Part shown: positions 23,081 through 31,651 of the stretch, in pieces
Layout: every line of letters starts with the position of its first letter
Numbering within the stretch: position 1 is the first letter of the stretch
Source of the DNA: Candidatus Baldrarchaeota archaeon
Lineage (GTDB): Archaea > Asgardarchaeota > Baldrarchaeia > Baldrarchaeales > DXJG01
Direction: 5' to 3'
Assembly: GCA_019056805.1 (NCBI GenBank)
Contig: DXJG01000009.1
Span: 126,015 to 158,014 of the forward strand
Length of the DNA: 32,000 nucleotides
The notes under the pieces: model-generated
The model's input: the letters and a program-made list of their open reading frames with translations, nothing else
What the model was told of the DNA's origin: nothing
The model's database searches: none
Made by a program: the position numbers and the translations under genes

Positions 23081-23111
23081 TCTATTCTCTTTATTTTAAA
23101 TGGTGCCTTCA

Positions 23112-23879
23112 ATGGATGTTTCTGAATGGAATAGATATGAAATTTTTAGCGAAATAAAAGTTCCCTATAATATTCCATTTTTTGTGAGATGTGATGGAAG
23201 AAATTTTCATCGTTTAACAGAAGAAATGGAATTTAAGAAACCGTATGATAAGGAATTCGCAGAAATTATGGTTAAAGCAGCAAAATGTCTTTTTAAAGGC
23301 GGTTTTAACCCGATGTTAGCCTACATTTTCTCGGATGAAGTAAATATTCTTTTTCTTGAGGCACCATTTAATGGGAGAATAGAAAAAATAGATAGCATAG
23401 TTGCGTCTTTTCTCGGCAGCGCCTTTTCTTTAGAGCTACATTTTAGAAAAAAAGTTAATAAAATTATTAGTTTCGATGCAAGAATTATTCCTATACCTAA
23501 AGAAAAAATTTTAAAATATTTAGCGTGGAGACAGCTAGAATGCTGGAGGAACCACATAAATTCTTATGCATTCTATACACTTATTGAAAAGGGGTTGAAT
23601 CGTGAAAAAGCTGCAAAAATGCTTAAAGGCTTAAAAAGCATCGAACTACATGAGCTAGTTTTTAAGGAAAAGGGGTTAAATCTAGCTAAAACTCCGACAT
23701 GGCAGAGAAGAGGGGTTCTCCTATACTTTGAAGAATATTTTAAGGAAAGTACTAATAAAATTACAGGAGAAAAGGTTCTGGCTGTTAGAAGAAAACTGGT
23801 TGAAAACTGGGATCTACCAATATTTAATTCTCCAGAAGGAGAAAAATTTCTATATAAAATTATTAAAATAAAAAACTAA
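23112..23879 (+). CDS. thg1: tRNA(His) guanylyltransferase Thg1 / Thg1-like protein
   Basis: VRCDGRNFH, KPYD, SDEVNILF, FDAR, YLAWRQ, PTWQRRG. ATG 23112 follows a GGTG SD. Confidence 0.93.
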   Translation: MDVSEWNRYEIFSEIKVPYNIPFFVRCDGRNFHRLTEEMEFKKPYDKEFAEIMVKAAKCLFKGGFNPMLAYIFSDEVNILFLEAPFNGRIEKIDSIVASFLGSAFSLELHFRKKVNKIISFDARIIPIPKEKILKYLAWRQLECWRNHINSYAFYTLIEKGLNREKAAKMLKGLKSIELHELVFKEKGLNLAKTPTWQRRGVLLYFEEYFKESTNKITGEKVLAVRRKLVENWDLPIFNSPEGEKFLYKIIKIKN

Positions 23880-25382: not shown

Positions 25383-26057
25383 TCAGTAATTTTTCTTTTC
25401 CTTTAACTTTGGAAGTAATATTCGTACTGCTCTTTTATTTTTATCCATCCACTTCGCTTTCCCACTATCTATTAGAATGTTAATAACTTGAAGAAGATCT
25501 TCGGTAGGTAGAGTTTTTATAACATCTGGACCCTCCTGTAAGAGGTCATAGGGTGTGAAATATATAGTTCCTGTGTTTAACGCCCAATTATATAGATACT
25601 CTGCCAGTTCTTCAAGTGATTTCCAATAAATTCTAAGCCTATTTTTATCCACCCATTTCGCAAATCCTTTTTCCACAAGGTAATTCATAATTTCCTTTAA
25701 ATACTCTGCTGGGAGTTTAGAGTAAGGATTTGTTGATAAAAGATCATCTATAGAAATTACATGTTTAATATGAAAAGAAGCCCATTTCAACAAAAGATTA
25801 CCCCAATTTTGAAGCCAAGATCTATATAAATCCGTATTTCTAGGTTTTATATACATCCAAGGATAATCTACCCAATCAGGGAAAACAAATTGAGGCCGCT
25901 CCTTTACAACCTCAACTTGCTTCGCAACTTTAATTTCCTCACTTATCCTTTCCACTTCCGAAACAACTTCTTGTTCAACCTCTTCTATTTCATTTATTTC
26001 TATTTTCTCTTTTTCTTGTTTCTCTTTTTTCCTTTCTTTTTCTTTAGCTGACAACAT
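25383..26057 (-). CDS. vps25: ESCRT-II subunit Vps25 homolog with a charged N-terminal extension
   Basis: FVFPDWVDYPWMY...WGNLLLKW and RIYWKSLEELAEYLYNW resemble the eukaryotic Vps25 N-terminal PPxY-like region and the WH1-WH2 junction. It is tightly coupled downstream of vps4. Confidence 0.82.
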   Translation of the reverse strand: MLSAKEKERKKEKQEKEKIEINEIEEVEQEVVSEVERISEEIKVAKQVEVVKERPQFVFPDWVDYPWMYIKPRNTDLYRSWLQNWGNLLLKWASFHIKHVISIDDLLSTNPYSKLPAEYLKEIMNYLVEKGFAKWVDKNRLRIYWKSLEELAEYLYNWALNTGTIYFTPYDLLQEGPDVIKTLPTEDLLQVINILIDSGKAKWMDKNKRAVRILLPKLKEKKNY

Positions 26058-26066
26058 TACCACCGC

Positions 26067-27221
26067 TTACGTAGCAAATTCTCTAGTCCATTCTTCATAT
26101 TTTTTAATCTCATCTAGAGAGACCGAAGGTCTTATCTTCGACAACGATTGCATAAAATCTTGCATTGTAACCGGCCTAATCTTTTCAATTTCAGTTAACT
26201 TTCCTTCTTGGTCAAGTTCCCTTATGGGCATCATTAAAGCCTCTCTACAAATTAAAGCTATATCGGCTCCACTATAGCCTTCTGTAAGCTCAGCTAATTT
26301 ATCAAAATCAACATCATATGCTAATTCCACGCCCTGCGTATGTATTTTAAAAATCTCTTTTCTAGCTTCCTTGTCAGGGAGAGGAACATATATTCTTTTC
26401 TCAAATCTTCTTCTCATCGCAGGATCAATGTCCCATGGACGATTCGTAGCACCAAGAACAACAATTCTTTCATCCTCTTTTTCCTTTAAACCATCCATCT
26501 CTATTAAAAGCTGTGTTTTTAATCTTCTCTCTCCACCAATGTCTTCCTCCGCCCTAACAGTTGCAATAGAATCAAGTTCATCTATAAAAATTATTGAAGG
26601 TTGATTTTGCCTTGCAAGGTCAAAAAGAATCTTTACAAGTTTTTCGGATTCTCCTAACCACTTTGAAACAATAGATGCAGCATCAACATTGAAAAAGGTA
26701 GCATCGCACTCCGCAGCCACAGCTTTCGCAATGAGTGTTTTTCCACATCCAGGAGGCCCATAAAGCAAAATCCCTTTCCAAGGCTTTCTCGCTCCTTTAA
26801 AGAGATCTGGTCTTAGAATAGGAATTATTATGGCTTCTCTCAACGCAGTTTTTGCTGCTTGAAGATCGGCTACATCCTCCCATCTCACATTAGGTTTTTC
26901 ATAAACTATAGTATCAGCTATTGCCGCGGTTAATGAGTCAACGTCTTCAGTTATTCTTCTACCCGATCTAGTTAATCGAGTTATTTTTACTGTTTTTCCT
27001 TTAAGGTAATTCTTAAGTTCTTTACTTCTTTCAACATATTCTTTAGCTTTCTGATAGTATATTGCTTGCAGTTTAGGGTTTTCAGTTAACTTCGAGAGTT
27101 TTAATAAAATTTCCGCTGCTTTCACATATTTTTCCATTGCTTCTTTATAATTTCCCTCTATATCAAGTCTTGTAGCTTCCCTTGCTATTTGAGAAGCATA
27201 TTGTAAGAGTCGAGAAGACAT
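26067..27221 (-). CDS. vps4: Vps4 AAA+ ATPase (MIT + AAA)
   Basis: N-terminal MIT three-helix region (AREATRLDIEGNYKEA), EKPNVRWEDVA, PWKGILLYGPPGCGKT, SKWLGESEK, IFIDELD, ATNRPWDIDPAMRRRFEKRIYVPLPD. Confidence 0.95.
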   Translation of the reverse strand: MSSRLLQYASQIAREATRLDIEGNYKEAMEKYVKAAEILLKLSKLTENPKLQAIYYQKAKEYVERSKELKNYLKGKTVKITRLTRSGRRITEDVDSLTAAIADTIVYEKPNVRWEDVADLQAAKTALREAIIIPILRPDLFKGARKPWKGILLYGPPGCGKTLIAKAVAAECDATFFNVDAASIVSKWLGESEKLVKILFDLARQNQPSIIFIDELDSIATVRAEEDIGGERRLKTQLLIEMDGLKEKEDERIVVLGATNRPWDIDPAMRRRFEKRIYVPLPDKEARKEIFKIHTQGVELAYDVDFDKLAELTEGYSGADIALICREALMMPIRELDQEGKLTEIEKIRPVTMQDFMQSLSKIRPSVSLDEIKKYEEWTREFAT

Positions 27222-27331
27222 TTTGTTTCACTTCGCTTCAAAATGATGAGGATAATTTTGATCTAAGAAAATGAGTGGCACAAATAATATAAAGATTAAT
27301 GTGTGTTACGTATTTGAAGGAGGAAAAGAGT

Positions 27332-27952
27332 TTGCCTCTTGCAGATAAAATTAGAATGTTTCTACGCTGGTTAAAGGGTACTCCCGATCTTAGAGAAATT
27401 ACCCTACAATTAGAGATCTTTACGCGTAAATTAGATTATCAGAGGAAACGATTAGAAAATGAAGCAAGAAAATGTAGAGAAAACGCCAGAAAATATCGAA
27501 TTGAAGGTAATGAAGAAGCATCTAGAATGTATGCTGAACATTTTCTACGTTACCGAAAATGGGCTTTAGGAATAGATGCTTTCAGACTAAGAATAGACGG
27601 TTTATTAGTTAAACTTAGACAGGCCCAATCGGTATCCGAGATCGAAAATGCTTTACGGGGAATTCGAGCAGCTGTAATTGGTTTAAAGGAAGCAATAAAT
27701 GTTCCTGACATAGCTGAAATGGTGGAAGACATAGATAAACAAATGAGAGAGATAGAAGTAGCTCAAGATATCACAGAAACCGGCATGGAACGTCTTACAG
27801 TTTCAACCGAAGTTACATCAGATGAGATAAACAGAGTATTAGCAGAAATAGACCAAGAAATCGGTGTTGAAACCGGAATAGCCTTACCAGAACCATCAAA
27901 GAAAATAAAAGAGCTAGAAAAAGACATTAAAAAACTAAAAGAAGAATTATGA
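27332..27952 (+). CDS. ESCRT-III, Vps2/24/46 (CHMP1-3) class
   Basis: Helical Snf7 fold; ASRMYAEHFLRYRK...RIDGL resembles the CHMP1/Did2 pattern; acidic C-terminal half. TTG start at 27332 after GGAGG (track start 27299). Confidence 0.85.
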   Translation: MPLADKIRMFLRWLKGTPDLREITLQLEIFTRKLDYQRKRLENEARKCRENARKYRIEGNEEASRMYAEHFLRYRKWALGIDAFRLRIDGLLVKLRQAQSVSEIENALRGIRAAVIGLKEAINVPDIAEMVEDIDKQMREIEVAQDITETGMERLTVSTEVTSDEINRVLAEIDQEIGVETGIALPEPSKKIKELEKDIKKLKEEL

Positions 27953-28203
27953 CAGTATTTATTAATAAAACCAAATAATCACAGTTAATTTTCACTTATT
28001 ATAAGAAATCCTAGGAACTCCACTTAAATCAAAATACATCATTTTGTTAGATAATAACGTCTTGTGCTAAAAACAAGAAAATTCGAGGTCATTGAGCCGA
28101 AATAAAACTATCTGATAAAATAAATTCGTTTCAATCGTATTTAAGGTAAAAATATTAAAAGGGAAATGTGATATGTGAATATGAGTTAGCGAGGTGTTTA
28201 TGT

Positions 28204-28833
28204 TTGCCAAAATTTCTTGATAAACTCTTCGGGAAAAAAACAAAGTCTGAAGATGAAACAATTGCGGAACTTAGAGCTACGATTAATAGACTTCAATTAA
28301 GAAGTAAAGAGCTAGATAAAAGAGCCAAAATGAGTAGAGAACAAGCTAAAGAACTTTTAAGAATGGGCAATAAAGAAGGAGCAAAATTCCAATTAAAAAG
28401 ATGGTTCCGTTATGTTCAACTATTTAACAGATATTCTAGGCAAATTGCAAGCTTAGAAGATGCTATTGCAACAATAGAAACTGCAAGAGACAGTGTTGAA
28501 ATGTCTAGAGCATTATCAACAGCACTCGACGCACTTAGACAAGCTAGAGAAATAGCTTCTCCAGAAAAAGCAATGGAACTCATGGTAAGAATGGATCAAA
28601 CGATGCAGGAGATAGAAAGCACATCACAAATTCTTAGTGAAGGCTTTGAAGTAGCTGGAGAAGAGGATCAATCAATTGAAAGAGAACTAGAAAAATTGGA
28701 AGCAGAAGTTATGCTTGAAGAAGCTGGAGAACTACCAAAGATACCTGCAAAAACGGAAAAAGTAGAAGAAATAGAGGAAGAAGTCAAAAAACTAAAAGAA
28801 GAAACATCTGAAGAAGAGAAAGAAGAAGCGTAA
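28204..28833 (+). CDS. ESCRT-III, Vps20/32/60 (Snf7/CHMP4-6) class
   Basis: N-terminal amphipathic FLDKLFGKK; GNKEGAKFQLKR...LEDAIATIETA; LPKIP tail. TTG start at 28204 after GAGGTG (track start 28168). Confidence 0.88.
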   Translation: MPKFLDKLFGKKTKSEDETIAELRATINRLQLRSKELDKRAKMSREQAKELLRMGNKEGAKFQLKRWFRYVQLFNRYSRQIASLEDAIATIETARDSVEMSRALSTALDALRQAREIASPEKAMELMVRMDQTMQEIESTSQILSEGFEVAGEEDQSIERELEKLEAEVMLEEAGELPKIPAKTEKVEEIEEEVKKLKEETSEEEKEEA

Positions 28834-28973: not shown

Positions 28974-30506
28974 TCAAAACTTAACAAAATCATTACTTTT
29001 CCGCATATTAACATTGAAATCGAAATTTTGACGACCGCTTTTTAATTCACGTAGCCTTTTTTCAATAGCATAAAGTTTTCCAACCCAAGACCTATAATAT
29101 TTAAAATAATTTTCCACGGAAATTAAACCGTCTTCAAAATATCGTTTCAATTCTTTTATTGTTTCTTCTGTTTCATATTTCTCTTTCTCGAGCTTAAATA
29201 TCTCCATCTTCAACTTATCTTCTGAACCACGAGGACTGTATGAAATCTCATGAAACACAACATTTTTCGAAACGTTAGAATGGCTTACATGTTCAGTTTC
29301 TGTAATTTTTTTAATTCTATTTAGAATTCTCTCAACTTTCATTTTTAAATCTGAAGTTTCTAACATTAAACTAGACACTTTGGAGGTAACAAAAGTATCC
29401 TTTAATGAGTATTTTTCGAAGTTTAATGCGATGTTAATATAGTCTTTTACTAATGGTAACATATTTGATGGGAAGCTAAAAGTAAGTTCTCCGTCATTAC
29501 ATTTTATAATTAGTCGTTTTATCAATCTACCCTTTATCTCCACATCTCTGATACGTTCTAATGGAATCTCAAAAGATTTGTAAAAAGATTTTTTAAATAA
29601 TCCTTTTTCAGCTAGGAAAATAAGCCGCTTATCAGTTAGAAATAGCTTTCCCCCTTCCTTTGGCACCCTTATGATATCAGATCCAGAAAACTTCGCGTTT
29701 TGAATCGCATATATAGGTTTCTCATCAAAATCTAATGATAAAATATCCTTATATTCACTAAATTCTTGACAATGTTTATACAGGGAGGAGACTAAAATTT
29801 CTAATTTCGAGAGCTTTTCTTCGATTTCCATTAAAGACTCATCTACATAATTCTTATAGTCGTTTAAATCTGCCTCAATTCTAGTTAAAATACTTCTAAG
29901 ATAAGGAAGATCTTCAACTTTAAACTGTTTTTCGATGGAAAACTTTGGCCCAATTGATAAAAGTAAACTTCCAATTTCCTCAATTTTCCCTAAAATTCTC
30001 GTTTTAACCAGGCTATAATCATTAAAAACATCCGTTAAAGTCCTTTCAATTACTGGATAATTAAAAAACCGGGAACGTCTAACGAAAATTAAAGTTCTTT
30101 TGACGTAATCAAATTTACGAGCAAATTTTCCCAACTTAACATAACCATACTTTATCTCAAAAGAAAGTTTTCTAAATTTCGCTTTCAAGGTAGCTTGTTC
30201 TTCTGCAAAATCAACTACCTCGGTAGAGCCACATTTGGAACAAGTCTTCACATACTTGGTAACAAAAACGACTTTCTTACTCTTACAGTCTTCACAAGAA
30301 TAATTGGATAAATCCTTATTTCTCCCTTTTCCAGTCTTAAGCTCTTTAACATTCTTTGACCCGCAGGTCAAGCAAATTGGAAACTTTTCTATTTTGACCG
30401 ACACGCAATTACGACATAACCCTGCTCCACACGTCCTACATATCCACTCAACTTCCTTCAATCCACACTTATGGCAGATTTCTCTCTCTGTATAAAAGTT
30501 TTCCAA
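28974..30506 (-). CDS. ESCRT-associated multidomain protein: six-CxxC Zn-finger region, coiled coil, PH/GRAM/GLUE-like domain, C-terminal steadiness box (Vps23/Vps37-like)
   Basis: CxxC at aa 11, 23, 31, 45, 71 and 89; GKLFLTDKRLIF..EIPLERIRDVE (PH-like); ETEETIKELKRYFEDGLISVENYFKYYR (steadiness-box pattern). Adjacent to ESCRT-III; TTG start after GGGAG. Confidence 0.72.
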   Translation of the reverse strand: MENFYTEREICHKCGLKEVEWICRTCGAGLCRNCVSVKIEKFPICLTCGSKNVKELKTGKGRNKDLSNYSCEDCKSKKVVFVTKYVKTCSKCGSTEVVDFAEEQATLKAKFRKLSFEIKYGYVKLGKFARKFDYVKRTLIFVRRSRFFNYPVIERTLTDVFNDYSLVKTRILGKIEEIGSLLLSIGPKFSIEKQFKVEDLPYLRSILTRIEADLNDYKNYVDESLMEIEEKLSKLEILVSSLYKHCQEFSEYKDILSLDFDEKPIYAIQNAKFSGSDIIRVPKEGGKLFLTDKRLIFLAEKGLFKKSFYKSFEIPLERIRDVEIKGRLIKRLIIKCNDGELTFSFPSNMLPLVKDYINIALNFEKYSLKDTFVTSKVSSLMLETSDLKMKVERILNRIKKITETEHVSHSNVSKNVVFHEISYSPRGSEDKLKMEIFKLEKEKYETEETIKELKRYFEDGLISVENYFKYYRSWVGKLYAIEKRLRELKSGRQNFDFNVNMRKSNDFVKF

Positions 30507-30763: not shown

Positions 30764-31522
30764 TTATTCGTCTAAATCTGCCAATTTCCTGCAATGTTCT
30801 TCAAAGAAGTCAAATATTTGAGTTAAAAATTTTACGTTCGATATATTGGACTTATCTCCTTCCTCAAGCTCCCTATGATGCCACCAGTATCCCCACCTGT
30901 AAAACATATAAAGCAAGCCAACAGCGAACACAAGTCCATTACCATAATTTCTTATAGCAGCAACTACCCCTGGCCTATTTCCCATCATTGCAGCCCCCAA
31001 TACAGTCCAATCATTTGAAACTCTTAAAAAATAAGGAGCTATCTTTGGATCTTTACCAGGAATCTCTGCAACTGCTTTTAAATTTTCATTAATTTTATGC
31101 TTTCCCAGAAAATTCCTAATGAGTTCAAAACGTGAATCTACCTTCAAGAACCGTTCCGGAACTCCACAAAAGAACGCATAACTCTTGGCCTTCTCTTCTA
31201 AAAACTCTGCATCGAAAACTCTAAGCAATCTATTTATTCCTTCAAAATTTTCAACCGGCCTGCCAATGAAAAGAATTCCTCCTTCATCAACCCAAGAAGC
31301 AATTTCACGAATCTCTTTGTTATGAAAGGGTATATTACCTGATGCACTTATTATAATAAAAACATCCCAATCATCTAAATCTTCTCTACTTACATTTCCA
31401 CGAGTTAATCCAACGGTGTATCCCCGTTCTTTTTCTAACCACCAAAGAAATCCCCCAATGCCTAGAACTCCTGGCATCTCTGATTCGTACCGATAAACAT
31501 CAATAAGAACATCAAGTATCAC
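30764..31522 (-). CDS. Hypothetical protein with a class-I GATase-like (DUF4350/GldG/GIFT-like) fold
   Basis: DLDDWDVFII..S..PF...EI..I..WV..GG.LF and INRLL..F pattern; C-terminal GLVFAVG...SN..F. GTG 31522 follows GGAGG. Confidence 0.5.
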   Translation of the reverse strand: MILDVLIDVYRYESEMPGVLGIGGFLWWLEKERGYTVGLTRGNVSREDLDDWDVFIIISASGNIPFHNKEIREIASWVDEGGILFIGRPVENFEGINRLLRVFDAEFLEEKAKSYAFFCGVPERFLKVDSRFELIRNFLGKHKINENLKAVAEIPGKDPKIAPYFLRVSNDWTVLGAAMMGNRPGVVAAIRNYGNGLVFAVGLLYMFYRWGYWWHHRELEEGDKSNISNVKFLTQIFDFFEEHCRKLADLDE

Positions 31523-31651
31523 ATACAACCCTCCACTATCCTATATTCAACCCTTTCTCAGCACTATAAAATATGATGCAAGATCACTATTTTAAAATTC
31601 TATTACCACCGGGTAACGGTAAATATTAAAATAATAAAATTAAAGTGTGAG

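Follow-up and report, generated by a model that had tools for sequence, protein, structure and literature searches.

A probable Baldrarchaeia-type member of the Asgard Znr_CC_PH_SB family, encoded in a compact ESCRT gene cluster

We analysed a stretch of 32,000 nucleotides (the window) on contig DXJG01000009.1, positions 126,015 to 158,014, of a Candidatus Baldrarchaeota archaeon whose genome (assembly GCA_019056805.1) amounts to 1.92 Mb in 18 contigs and is 91% complete. Our main focus is one minus-strand gene that lies beside genes for the endosomal sorting complexes that are required for transport (ESCRT) and encodes a protein of 510 amino acids (aa). Very probably, this gene encodes the Baldrarchaeia-type copy of Znr_CC_PH_SB (cog.011556), an Asgard-specific protein family. 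In window coordinates, the gene and its parts are as follows.

28974-30506, minus strand: whole gene, probable Znr_CC_PH_SB member, 510 aa, TTG start, open frame
30363-30476, minus strand: first zinc module, aa 11-48, with its eight Cys in the pattern C-x2-C-x8-C-x2-C-x4-C-x2-C-x10-C-x2-C
30231-30296, minus strand: third zinc site, aa 71-92, a zinc ribbon of the form C-x2-C...C-P-x-C that includes a beta-hairpin
29739-30209, minus strand: helical (coiled-coil) region, aa 100-256, four long helices
29424-29726, minus strand: PH domain of the GRAM/GLUE/bacterial-PH kind, aa 261-361, from Pfam bPH_3 (above its cut-off) and Foldseek
29226-29423, minus strand: linker, aa 362-427, of low model confidence and of a length that varies across the family
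29022-29225, minus strand: steadiness box, aa 428-495, a C-terminal helical hairpin with the motif L..L...F..G.IS...YFK.YR....ELY.I

Translation of 28974-30506 on the minus strand gives 510 residues without a stop. Because seven homologues of nearly equal length (57-87% identity) begin with Met at the position of the TTG codon, we regard both the gene and its start as real. The nearest named relatives, at 60-63% identity, come from metagenome-assembled genomes labelled Candidatus Baldrarchaeota and from one labelled Odinarchaeota. The DNA occurs in subsurface and marine metagenome sequencing runs; no RNA run was among those listed, which says nothing about expression. NCBIfam has no model for the protein, and a single-sequence phmmer search of the Protein Data Bank (PDB) returned no match; PDB sequence matches for this protein came from family profiles only. 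The full-length AlphaFold2 model has a predicted local distance difference test score (pLDDT) of 69.9.

The six CxxC pairs that the initial annotation placed at aa 11-92 are present (C11/14, C23/26, C31/34, C45/48, C71/74 and C89/92). In the close family none of the twelve Cys varies, and among 41-45 distant members, at about 20-30% identity, they are invariant or almost so. The eight Cys of the first zinc module do not vary in 41 diverse members; at the third site, C71, C74 and C89 are likewise invariant and P90 and C92 almost so, and models show strands at 68-71, 79-88 and 95-98. Modelled as a domain on its own, the zinc module reached a pLDDT of 85.5. Pfam zf-B_box matched the full protein below its cut-off (E 0.0036, 17.9 bits against 24.1), and a fold search gave only weak matches (Z 3-4.4) to zinc ribbons, RING, U-box, B-box and ZZ domains. 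With the zinc-module model, Foldseek found no match at E<=0.001 and VIA Z scores stayed at or below 4.4. The first six ligands of the first module fit the spacing of B-box1, which we treat as a lead only. This module could be B-box-like or else a pair of zinc ribbons, and the zinc module as a whole is classifiable no further than as small Cys4 zinc-binding domains.

A FYVE-type finger had also been proposed for this region. The segment at aa 23-36 reads CRTCGAGLCRNCVS, and CRTCGAGLCRNC resembles the CRxCGxxxCxxC part of FYVE fingers, which would fit a phosphoinositide sensor with a generic coiled coil or a SHOCT domain as its tail, unrelated to ESCRT-I. However, the R(R/K)HHCR and WxxD motifs are absent, Pfam gave no FYVE match at E<=10, and no FYVE finger appears among the listed fold matches of the zinc module, in which the sole row for a FYVE protein is its B-box domain. 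The FYVE assignment therefore does not stand; the proposed tail is considered with the hairpin below.

The coiled coil predicted after the zinc module is seen in the AlphaFold2 model as helices at 100-117, 120-143, 150-189 and 197-251, with pLDDT mostly 72-90 and a dip to 57 at aa 141-150. The length of this helical region is conserved across the family.

The PH domain follows. At aa 261-344, Pfam bPH_3 (PF14470) scores E 4.9e-6 and 27.4 bits against a cut-off of 23, with weaker matches to GRAM (E 0.0045) and Vps36_ESCRT-II (E 0.049); across 44 family members, the same models match 25, 18 and 17 times, respectively (best Vps36_ESCRT-II match 4.1e-6). AlphaFold2 builds aa 264-361 as seven strands and a C-terminal helix, and the domain has conserved basic residues at K283, K293-R294, K305-K306, R327 and K330. 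Numerous PH domains come up at E about 1e-5 when the full model is searched with Foldseek. Among the single-domain matches, the GLUE domain of yeast Vps36 ranks first (2cay_B; E 7e-6, TM score 0.63 by target, 22% identity), and Vps36 (2cay_A) is also first when the family profile of the domain is searched against PDB sequences, at E 0.021 only. Foldseek rows for DH-PH (RhoGEF) proteins had root-mean-square deviations of 17-26 A; we read them as the PH domain plus nearby helices, with no DH domain. The domain belongs to the GRAM/GLUE/bacterial-PH group, and a specific kinship to GLUE is suggested.

In yeast, the Vps36 GLUE domain with its NZF fingers binds the C-terminal domain (CTD) of Vps28, ubiquitin and the membrane. 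By analogy, the zinc module and PH domain of the window protein could bind these same three partners while its hairpin docks on variants of Vps22 or Vps25 that carry a steadiness box, so that the protein would stand in for a Vps36 GLUE. Vps36 GLUE tops both the single-domain structure matches and the PDB profile matches. Neither Vps37 nor a Vps36 with GLUE is reported for Asgard archaea, and it has been postulated that their ESCRT-I and ESCRT-II are bridged by some further factor (Hatano et al. 2022; PMC9192718). Asgard Vps22 proteins with a steadiness box have been reported (PMC10936438), and the gene clusters with EAP30, Vps25 and Vps4 in five of the loci described below. However, the zinc modules are N-terminal rather than inserted in the PH domain, NZF spacing is absent, and the GLUE match is no stronger than those to GRAM and bacterial PH domains, with the interactions themselves drawn by analogy. 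We consider the stand-in reading unlikely.

Between the PH domain and the hairpin, the model has pLDDT below 50 at aa 365-391 and 402-427. This linker, 66 aa long here, measures 36-130 aa across the family in a MAFFT alignment, and by hidden Markov model coordinates the gap exceeds 200 aa in members of 650-830 aa. A MIM1-like motif in the helix after the PH domain (aa 386-400) was checked for by eye and rejected, as it did not fit the consensus.

The C-terminal hairpin consists of helices 428-458 and 464-509 in the AlphaFold2 model. With the 510-aa sequence alone, Pfam Vps23_core gives a weak match at aa 435-473 (E 0.16). A profile built from 50 family C-termini matches the yeast Vps23 core in the PDB (2p22/2f66/2caz, E 4.6e-7 to 1.2e-5) and human TSG101 (6vme_B, E 7.8e-5), in both cases across the two helices and the G-x-I turn; VPS37B (6vme_C) is marginal at E 0.25, and some designed coiled coils also match, over one helix only. 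Aligned by hhalign to the last 57 residues (185-241) of the genome's own UEV-Vps23, the profile gives a probability of 97.5%, E 5e-12 and 39% identity, and it matches the N-terminal hairpin of Vps28 more weakly (E 4.5e-5). Among the 50 hairpins, the commonest Pfam match is Vps23_core (29), compared to four weak matches to CdvA and two to SHOCT (E>=0.014). Short stand-alone proteins matched by the hairpin region also score for Vps23_core. As judged from these profile comparisons, the hairpin is a Vps23-type steadiness box.

The hairpin motif G-[LI]-I-S..E-Y is superficially SHOCT-like, which, with the two weak SHOCT matches, could be taken to favour the FYVE-sensor reading introduced above. Against this, the 510-aa protein itself has no Pfam SHOCT match, Vps23_core is found in 29 of the 50 hairpins compared to SHOCT in two, and the Vps23 and TSG101 matches cover both helices. 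The sensor reading is refuted as far as sequence and fold comparison can refute it, and we find it scarcely credible.

Apart from the FYVE finger, the initial annotation had divided the chain well. Its domain boundaries are right within a few residues, the middle domain has a PH fold (bPH_3 above cut-off, TM 0.63 to Vps36 GLUE 2cay), and the C-terminus scores as the TSG101-like steadiness box it had recognised rather than as SHOCT. As it had noted, the protein shows no UEV domain: the Pfam scan gave neither UEV nor UQ_con at E<=10, and it gave no match to EAP30 or Mod_r.

Four parts are conserved in the family: the 12-Cys zinc module, then the helical region, then a PH domain of GRAM/GLUE type and, beyond a linker of variable length, the steadiness box at the extreme C-terminus. 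When the profile was searched exhaustively, 151 representative clusters scored E<=0.001, of which 86 reach E<=1e-10, with lengths of 430-830 aa. Every member has the N-terminal 400 residues and the C-terminal hairpin, and variation is confined to the linker.

This architecture is already known. Makarova, Tobiasson, Wolf and Koonin (2024, mBio 15:e00335-24; PMC10936438) named it Znr_CC_PH_SB (also Znr_PH_CC_SB; asCOG cog.011556), counted three zinc ribbons at the N-terminus, and proposed that the protein is likely an ESCRT-I component whose PH domain is expected to be membrane associated. In their Table S2, a 650-aa cog.011556 protein of Lokiarchaeum GC14_75 has the gene for ribosomal protein L35Ae on one side and MetE on the other, and a gene of the Vps20 family in convergent orientation comes next (PMC10936438). 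Our close-family profile finds Loki-type proteins of 650-750 aa at E 1e-40 to 1e-45, and one such locus (L050) has L35Ae, a 663-aa homologue, a MetE-like gene and Snf7 in the same order as the published Lokiarchaeum entry. Because this homologue was found by the profile and shares that gene order, we place the window protein in the published family; the link to cog.011556 is indirect, made through profile and gene order. The locus is thus no new kind of system, and the suggestion that it might be an undescribed one falls away. The accompanying idea of a membrane-targeting ESCRT adaptor is reasonable and equals the published inference (PMC10936438).

The family is near-universal in Asgard genomes, and its placement beside ESCRT-III is conserved. 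A family match at E<=1e-5 was found in 384 of 400 Asgard genomes, most of the listed genomes scoring below 1e-100, with weak, domain-level matches only in a few GTDB families. We examined linkage in 23 loci from four GTDB families, made up of 20 kb around the homologue in each of 20 genomes and three close loci. In 22 of them the homologue has an ESCRT-III gene no more than 5 kb away, so the orthologues are linked to ESCRT genes, as had been anticipated. Vps4 and Vps25 are also present in nine loci, and EAP30 too in five of those nine, all from GTDB family f31. In these f31 loci (L048, L049, L055, L056, L059), the adjacent ESCRT-III gene is IIIA-like and stands inside the full EAP30-Vps25-Vps4 cluster. 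In families f1, f19 and f20 (L043-L046, L050-L054, L057, L058, L060-L062), it is IIIB-like.

In the window, the Znr_CC_PH_SB gene is convergent (tail-to-tail) with the gene for ESCRT-IIIB, after which come ESCRT-IIIA, Vps4 and the Vps25-like subunit.

28168-28833, plus strand: ESCRT-IIIB (Vps20/32/60-like); Pfam Snf7 E 9.7e-20, top PDB match Heimdallarchaeota ESCRT-IIIB (9ftl, E 6.4e-16)
27299-27952, plus strand: ESCRT-IIIA (Vps2/24/46-like); Pfam Snf7 E 1e-14, top PDB matches CHMP1B, CHMP2A and CHMP3
26067-27221, minus strand: Vps4 AAA ATPase; Pfam MIT, AAA and Vps4_C
25383-26063, minus strand: Vps25-like ESCRT-II subunit; Pfam ESCRT-II (PF05871), E 7.9e-14

Two further genes of the window are recorded here as separate observations. 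Directly upstream of the Znr_CC_PH_SB gene is an open reading frame (ORF) of 254 aa (30764-31528, minus strand), a conserved neighbour in a related genome (79.5% identity), for which Pfam gave weak matches to DUF4350 and DUF2194 only. At 23100-23879 (plus strand), between aminotransferase and sugar-nucleotidyltransferase genes, is a Thg1-type tRNA-His guanylyltransferase (Thg1 and Thg1C).

CdvA recruits CdvB in Thermoproteota, and the Znr_CC_PH_SB protein could act in a similar manner, with its PH domain on the membrane and the ESCRT-III encoded beside it recruited directly, independently of ESCRT-I and ESCRT-II. The most conserved neighbour is indeed an ESCRT-III gene, not Vps23 or Vps28, and ESCRT-III is the sole ESCRT neighbour found in 13 of the 23 loci. 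The Lokiarchaeum locus has only a Vps20-family ESCRT gene, and HHpred similarity between CdvA and the steadiness box has been reported by Makarova et al. (PMC10936438); Pfam CdvA weakly matches four of our 50 hairpins. However, the hairpin is far nearer to Vps23 than to CdvA, there is neither a PRC barrel nor the E3B-type tail of CdvA, and the type of the adjacent ESCRT-III is inconstant, being IIIB-like in three GTDB families and IIIA-like in another. We also know of no winged-helix docking site in Asgard ESCRT-III proteins. Direct recruitment of this kind seems to us quite unlikely.

The same contig holds a ubiquitin-ESCRT-I/II cluster about 12 kb away (L007:8766-13877; 8.8-13.9 kb past the window end). 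It encodes E1 (ThiF), E2, an 86-aa RING protein, UEV-Vps23 (243 aa; G000 C17, L007:11488-12219), Vps28 (202 aa), a Vps28-CTD copy and an EAP30/Vps22-like protein. The Vps28-CTD copy is a 95-aa ORF between the Vps28 and EAP30 genes (L007:12840-13127, plus strand, equal to G000:C17:170839-171126; 12.8 kb past the window end) and constitutes a stand-alone Vps28 C-terminal domain, aligning with Vps28 residues 107-192 over 89 aa at 31% identity (E 4e-7). Separate Vps28-CTD copies have been described in some Asgard genomes by Makarova et al. 2024 (PMC10936438). This organism therefore carries the usual Asgard ubiquitin-ESCRT set, and the Znr_CC_PH_SB protein adds to that set and does not replace it. 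The initial annotation had proposed one chain standing in for ESCRT-0, ESCRT-I and ESCRT-II, possibly without ubiquitin; because the canonical parts (UEV-Vps23, Vps28, EAP30, E1, E2, RING and Vps25) are present in the genome, such a replacement of ubiquitin-dependent ESCRT is unsupported.

Two other reading frames of this genome contain segments that resemble the Vps23 core. A 579-aa protein (L008:3983-5722, plus strand, equal to G000:C18:81982-83721) has a NosD-type right-handed beta-helix at aa 73-245, a Vps23_core-like hairpin at aa 463-502 (E 4e-4) and, at its C-terminus, a RING finger of prokaryotic type at aa 527-570. We regard it as a candidate E3 ligase whose steadiness box could let it dock on ESCRT-I. 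The other is an 870-aa open frame (L009; G000:C9:263000-274000) with a weak Vps23_core-like match at E 0.13.

Given these parts, we propose that the steadiness-box hairpin would pack against the homologous hairpins of Vps23, Vps28 or both, which would make the Znr_CC_PH_SB protein a UEV-less ESCRT-I subunit that takes the third (Vps37-like) headpiece position or forms an alternative ESCRT-I. Through its conserved Lys and Arg residues, the PH domain would keep the complex on the anionic archaeal membrane and so provide the kind of GLUE-like contact that is missing from Asgard ESCRT-II (Vps22/25). The zinc module might bind cargo, ubiquitin or another ESCRT partner. Acting through Vps28 and ESCRT-II (Vps22/Vps25), the complex would lead to nucleation of the ESCRT-IIIB encoded next to it. 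All the partners for these steps (UEV-Vps23, Vps28, the Vps28-CTD copy, EAP30 and Vps25) are encoded in the genome. Taken whole, we think this mechanism is about evenly balanced between right and wrong.

Several points weigh against it. The helical region precedes the PH domain, whereas the stalk of Vps23 and Vps37 directly precedes the hairpin. The gene is convergent to that of ESCRT-IIIB and is not co-transcribed with it. The full-length AlphaFold2 model is of only middling confidence, and bPH_3 and GRAM match the PH domain as well as or better than GLUE, so that a GLUE-like function toward lipid or ubiquitin would be by analogy only. Our literature search found no experimental paper on any Znr_CC_PH_SB member. 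Finally, Hatano et al. 2022, who make no mention of the Znr_CC_PH_SB protein, found that an Odinarchaeotal Vps23 dimer and one Vps28 form a trimer without a third protein (PMC9192718). A third hairpin is therefore not required in that lineage. When the hairpin was folded as a complex with this genome's own Vps23 C-terminus and Vps28 N-terminal domain, the median score was 0.37 and a control scored 0.24, which speaks neither for nor against binding.

Among known organisms, Asgard archaea are the closest to eukaryotes, and the family could be the archaeal source of two eukaryotic ESCRT parts otherwise missing from Asgard genomes, with the UEV-less hairpin chain leading to Vps37 and the zinc-finger and PH portion to the Vps36 GLUE. 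The hairpin chain may then be a forerunner or functional equivalent of Vps37, and domain shuffling in the eukaryotic stem may have transferred the zinc-PH portion to ESCRT-II. We consider this origin rather improbable; if true, the ancestral Asgard ESCRT-I carried its own membrane anchor. Asgard archaea are not known to have ESCRT-0. The Znr_CC_PH_SB family, described by computation only, is the obvious candidate for the missing membrane contact, and a short, well-conserved copy in a compact and complete cluster could suit biochemistry as a construct.

How does the window protein compare with known systems? Similar to CdvA, the cell-division ESCRT-III recruiter of Thermoproteota, it carries a helical hairpin, would act as an adaptor that binds the membrane, and has ESCRT-III and Vps4 genes as neighbours; unlike CdvA, it has no PRC barrel, and its hairpin matches Vps23_core far better. 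Vps37 (Mod_r) is also UEV-less and combines helical regions with a steadiness-box hairpin, which makes the window protein a possible third headpiece subunit, yet its hairpin is closer to Vps23, with VPS37B only marginal and no Pfam Mod_r match. With the Vps36 GLUE (2cay, 1w7p), it shares the PH fold, the strand motif G.L.LT..R[LI].F and the presence of zinc fingers in the same protein. In contrast to Vps36, its PH domain is continuous and not split by NZF, it has no EAP30 winged-helix domains, and its zinc sites are N-terminal with non-NZF spacing. Vps23/TSG101 and the genome's UEV-Vps23 have the homologous C-terminal hairpin in common with it. However, compared to Vps23/TSG101, zinc fingers and a PH domain take the place of the UEV domain, and between the long helices and the hairpin come the PH domain and then a disordered linker. 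Compared to Znr_CC_PH_SB as published, the domain set and order, the Asgard restriction and the ESCRT-III neighbourhood are identical, and there is no difference in kind: the window copy is a short form of 510 aa, where Loki-type members have about 650-750 aa, and it sits in an unusually compact cluster with ESCRT-IIIB, ESCRT-IIIA, Vps4 and Vps25.

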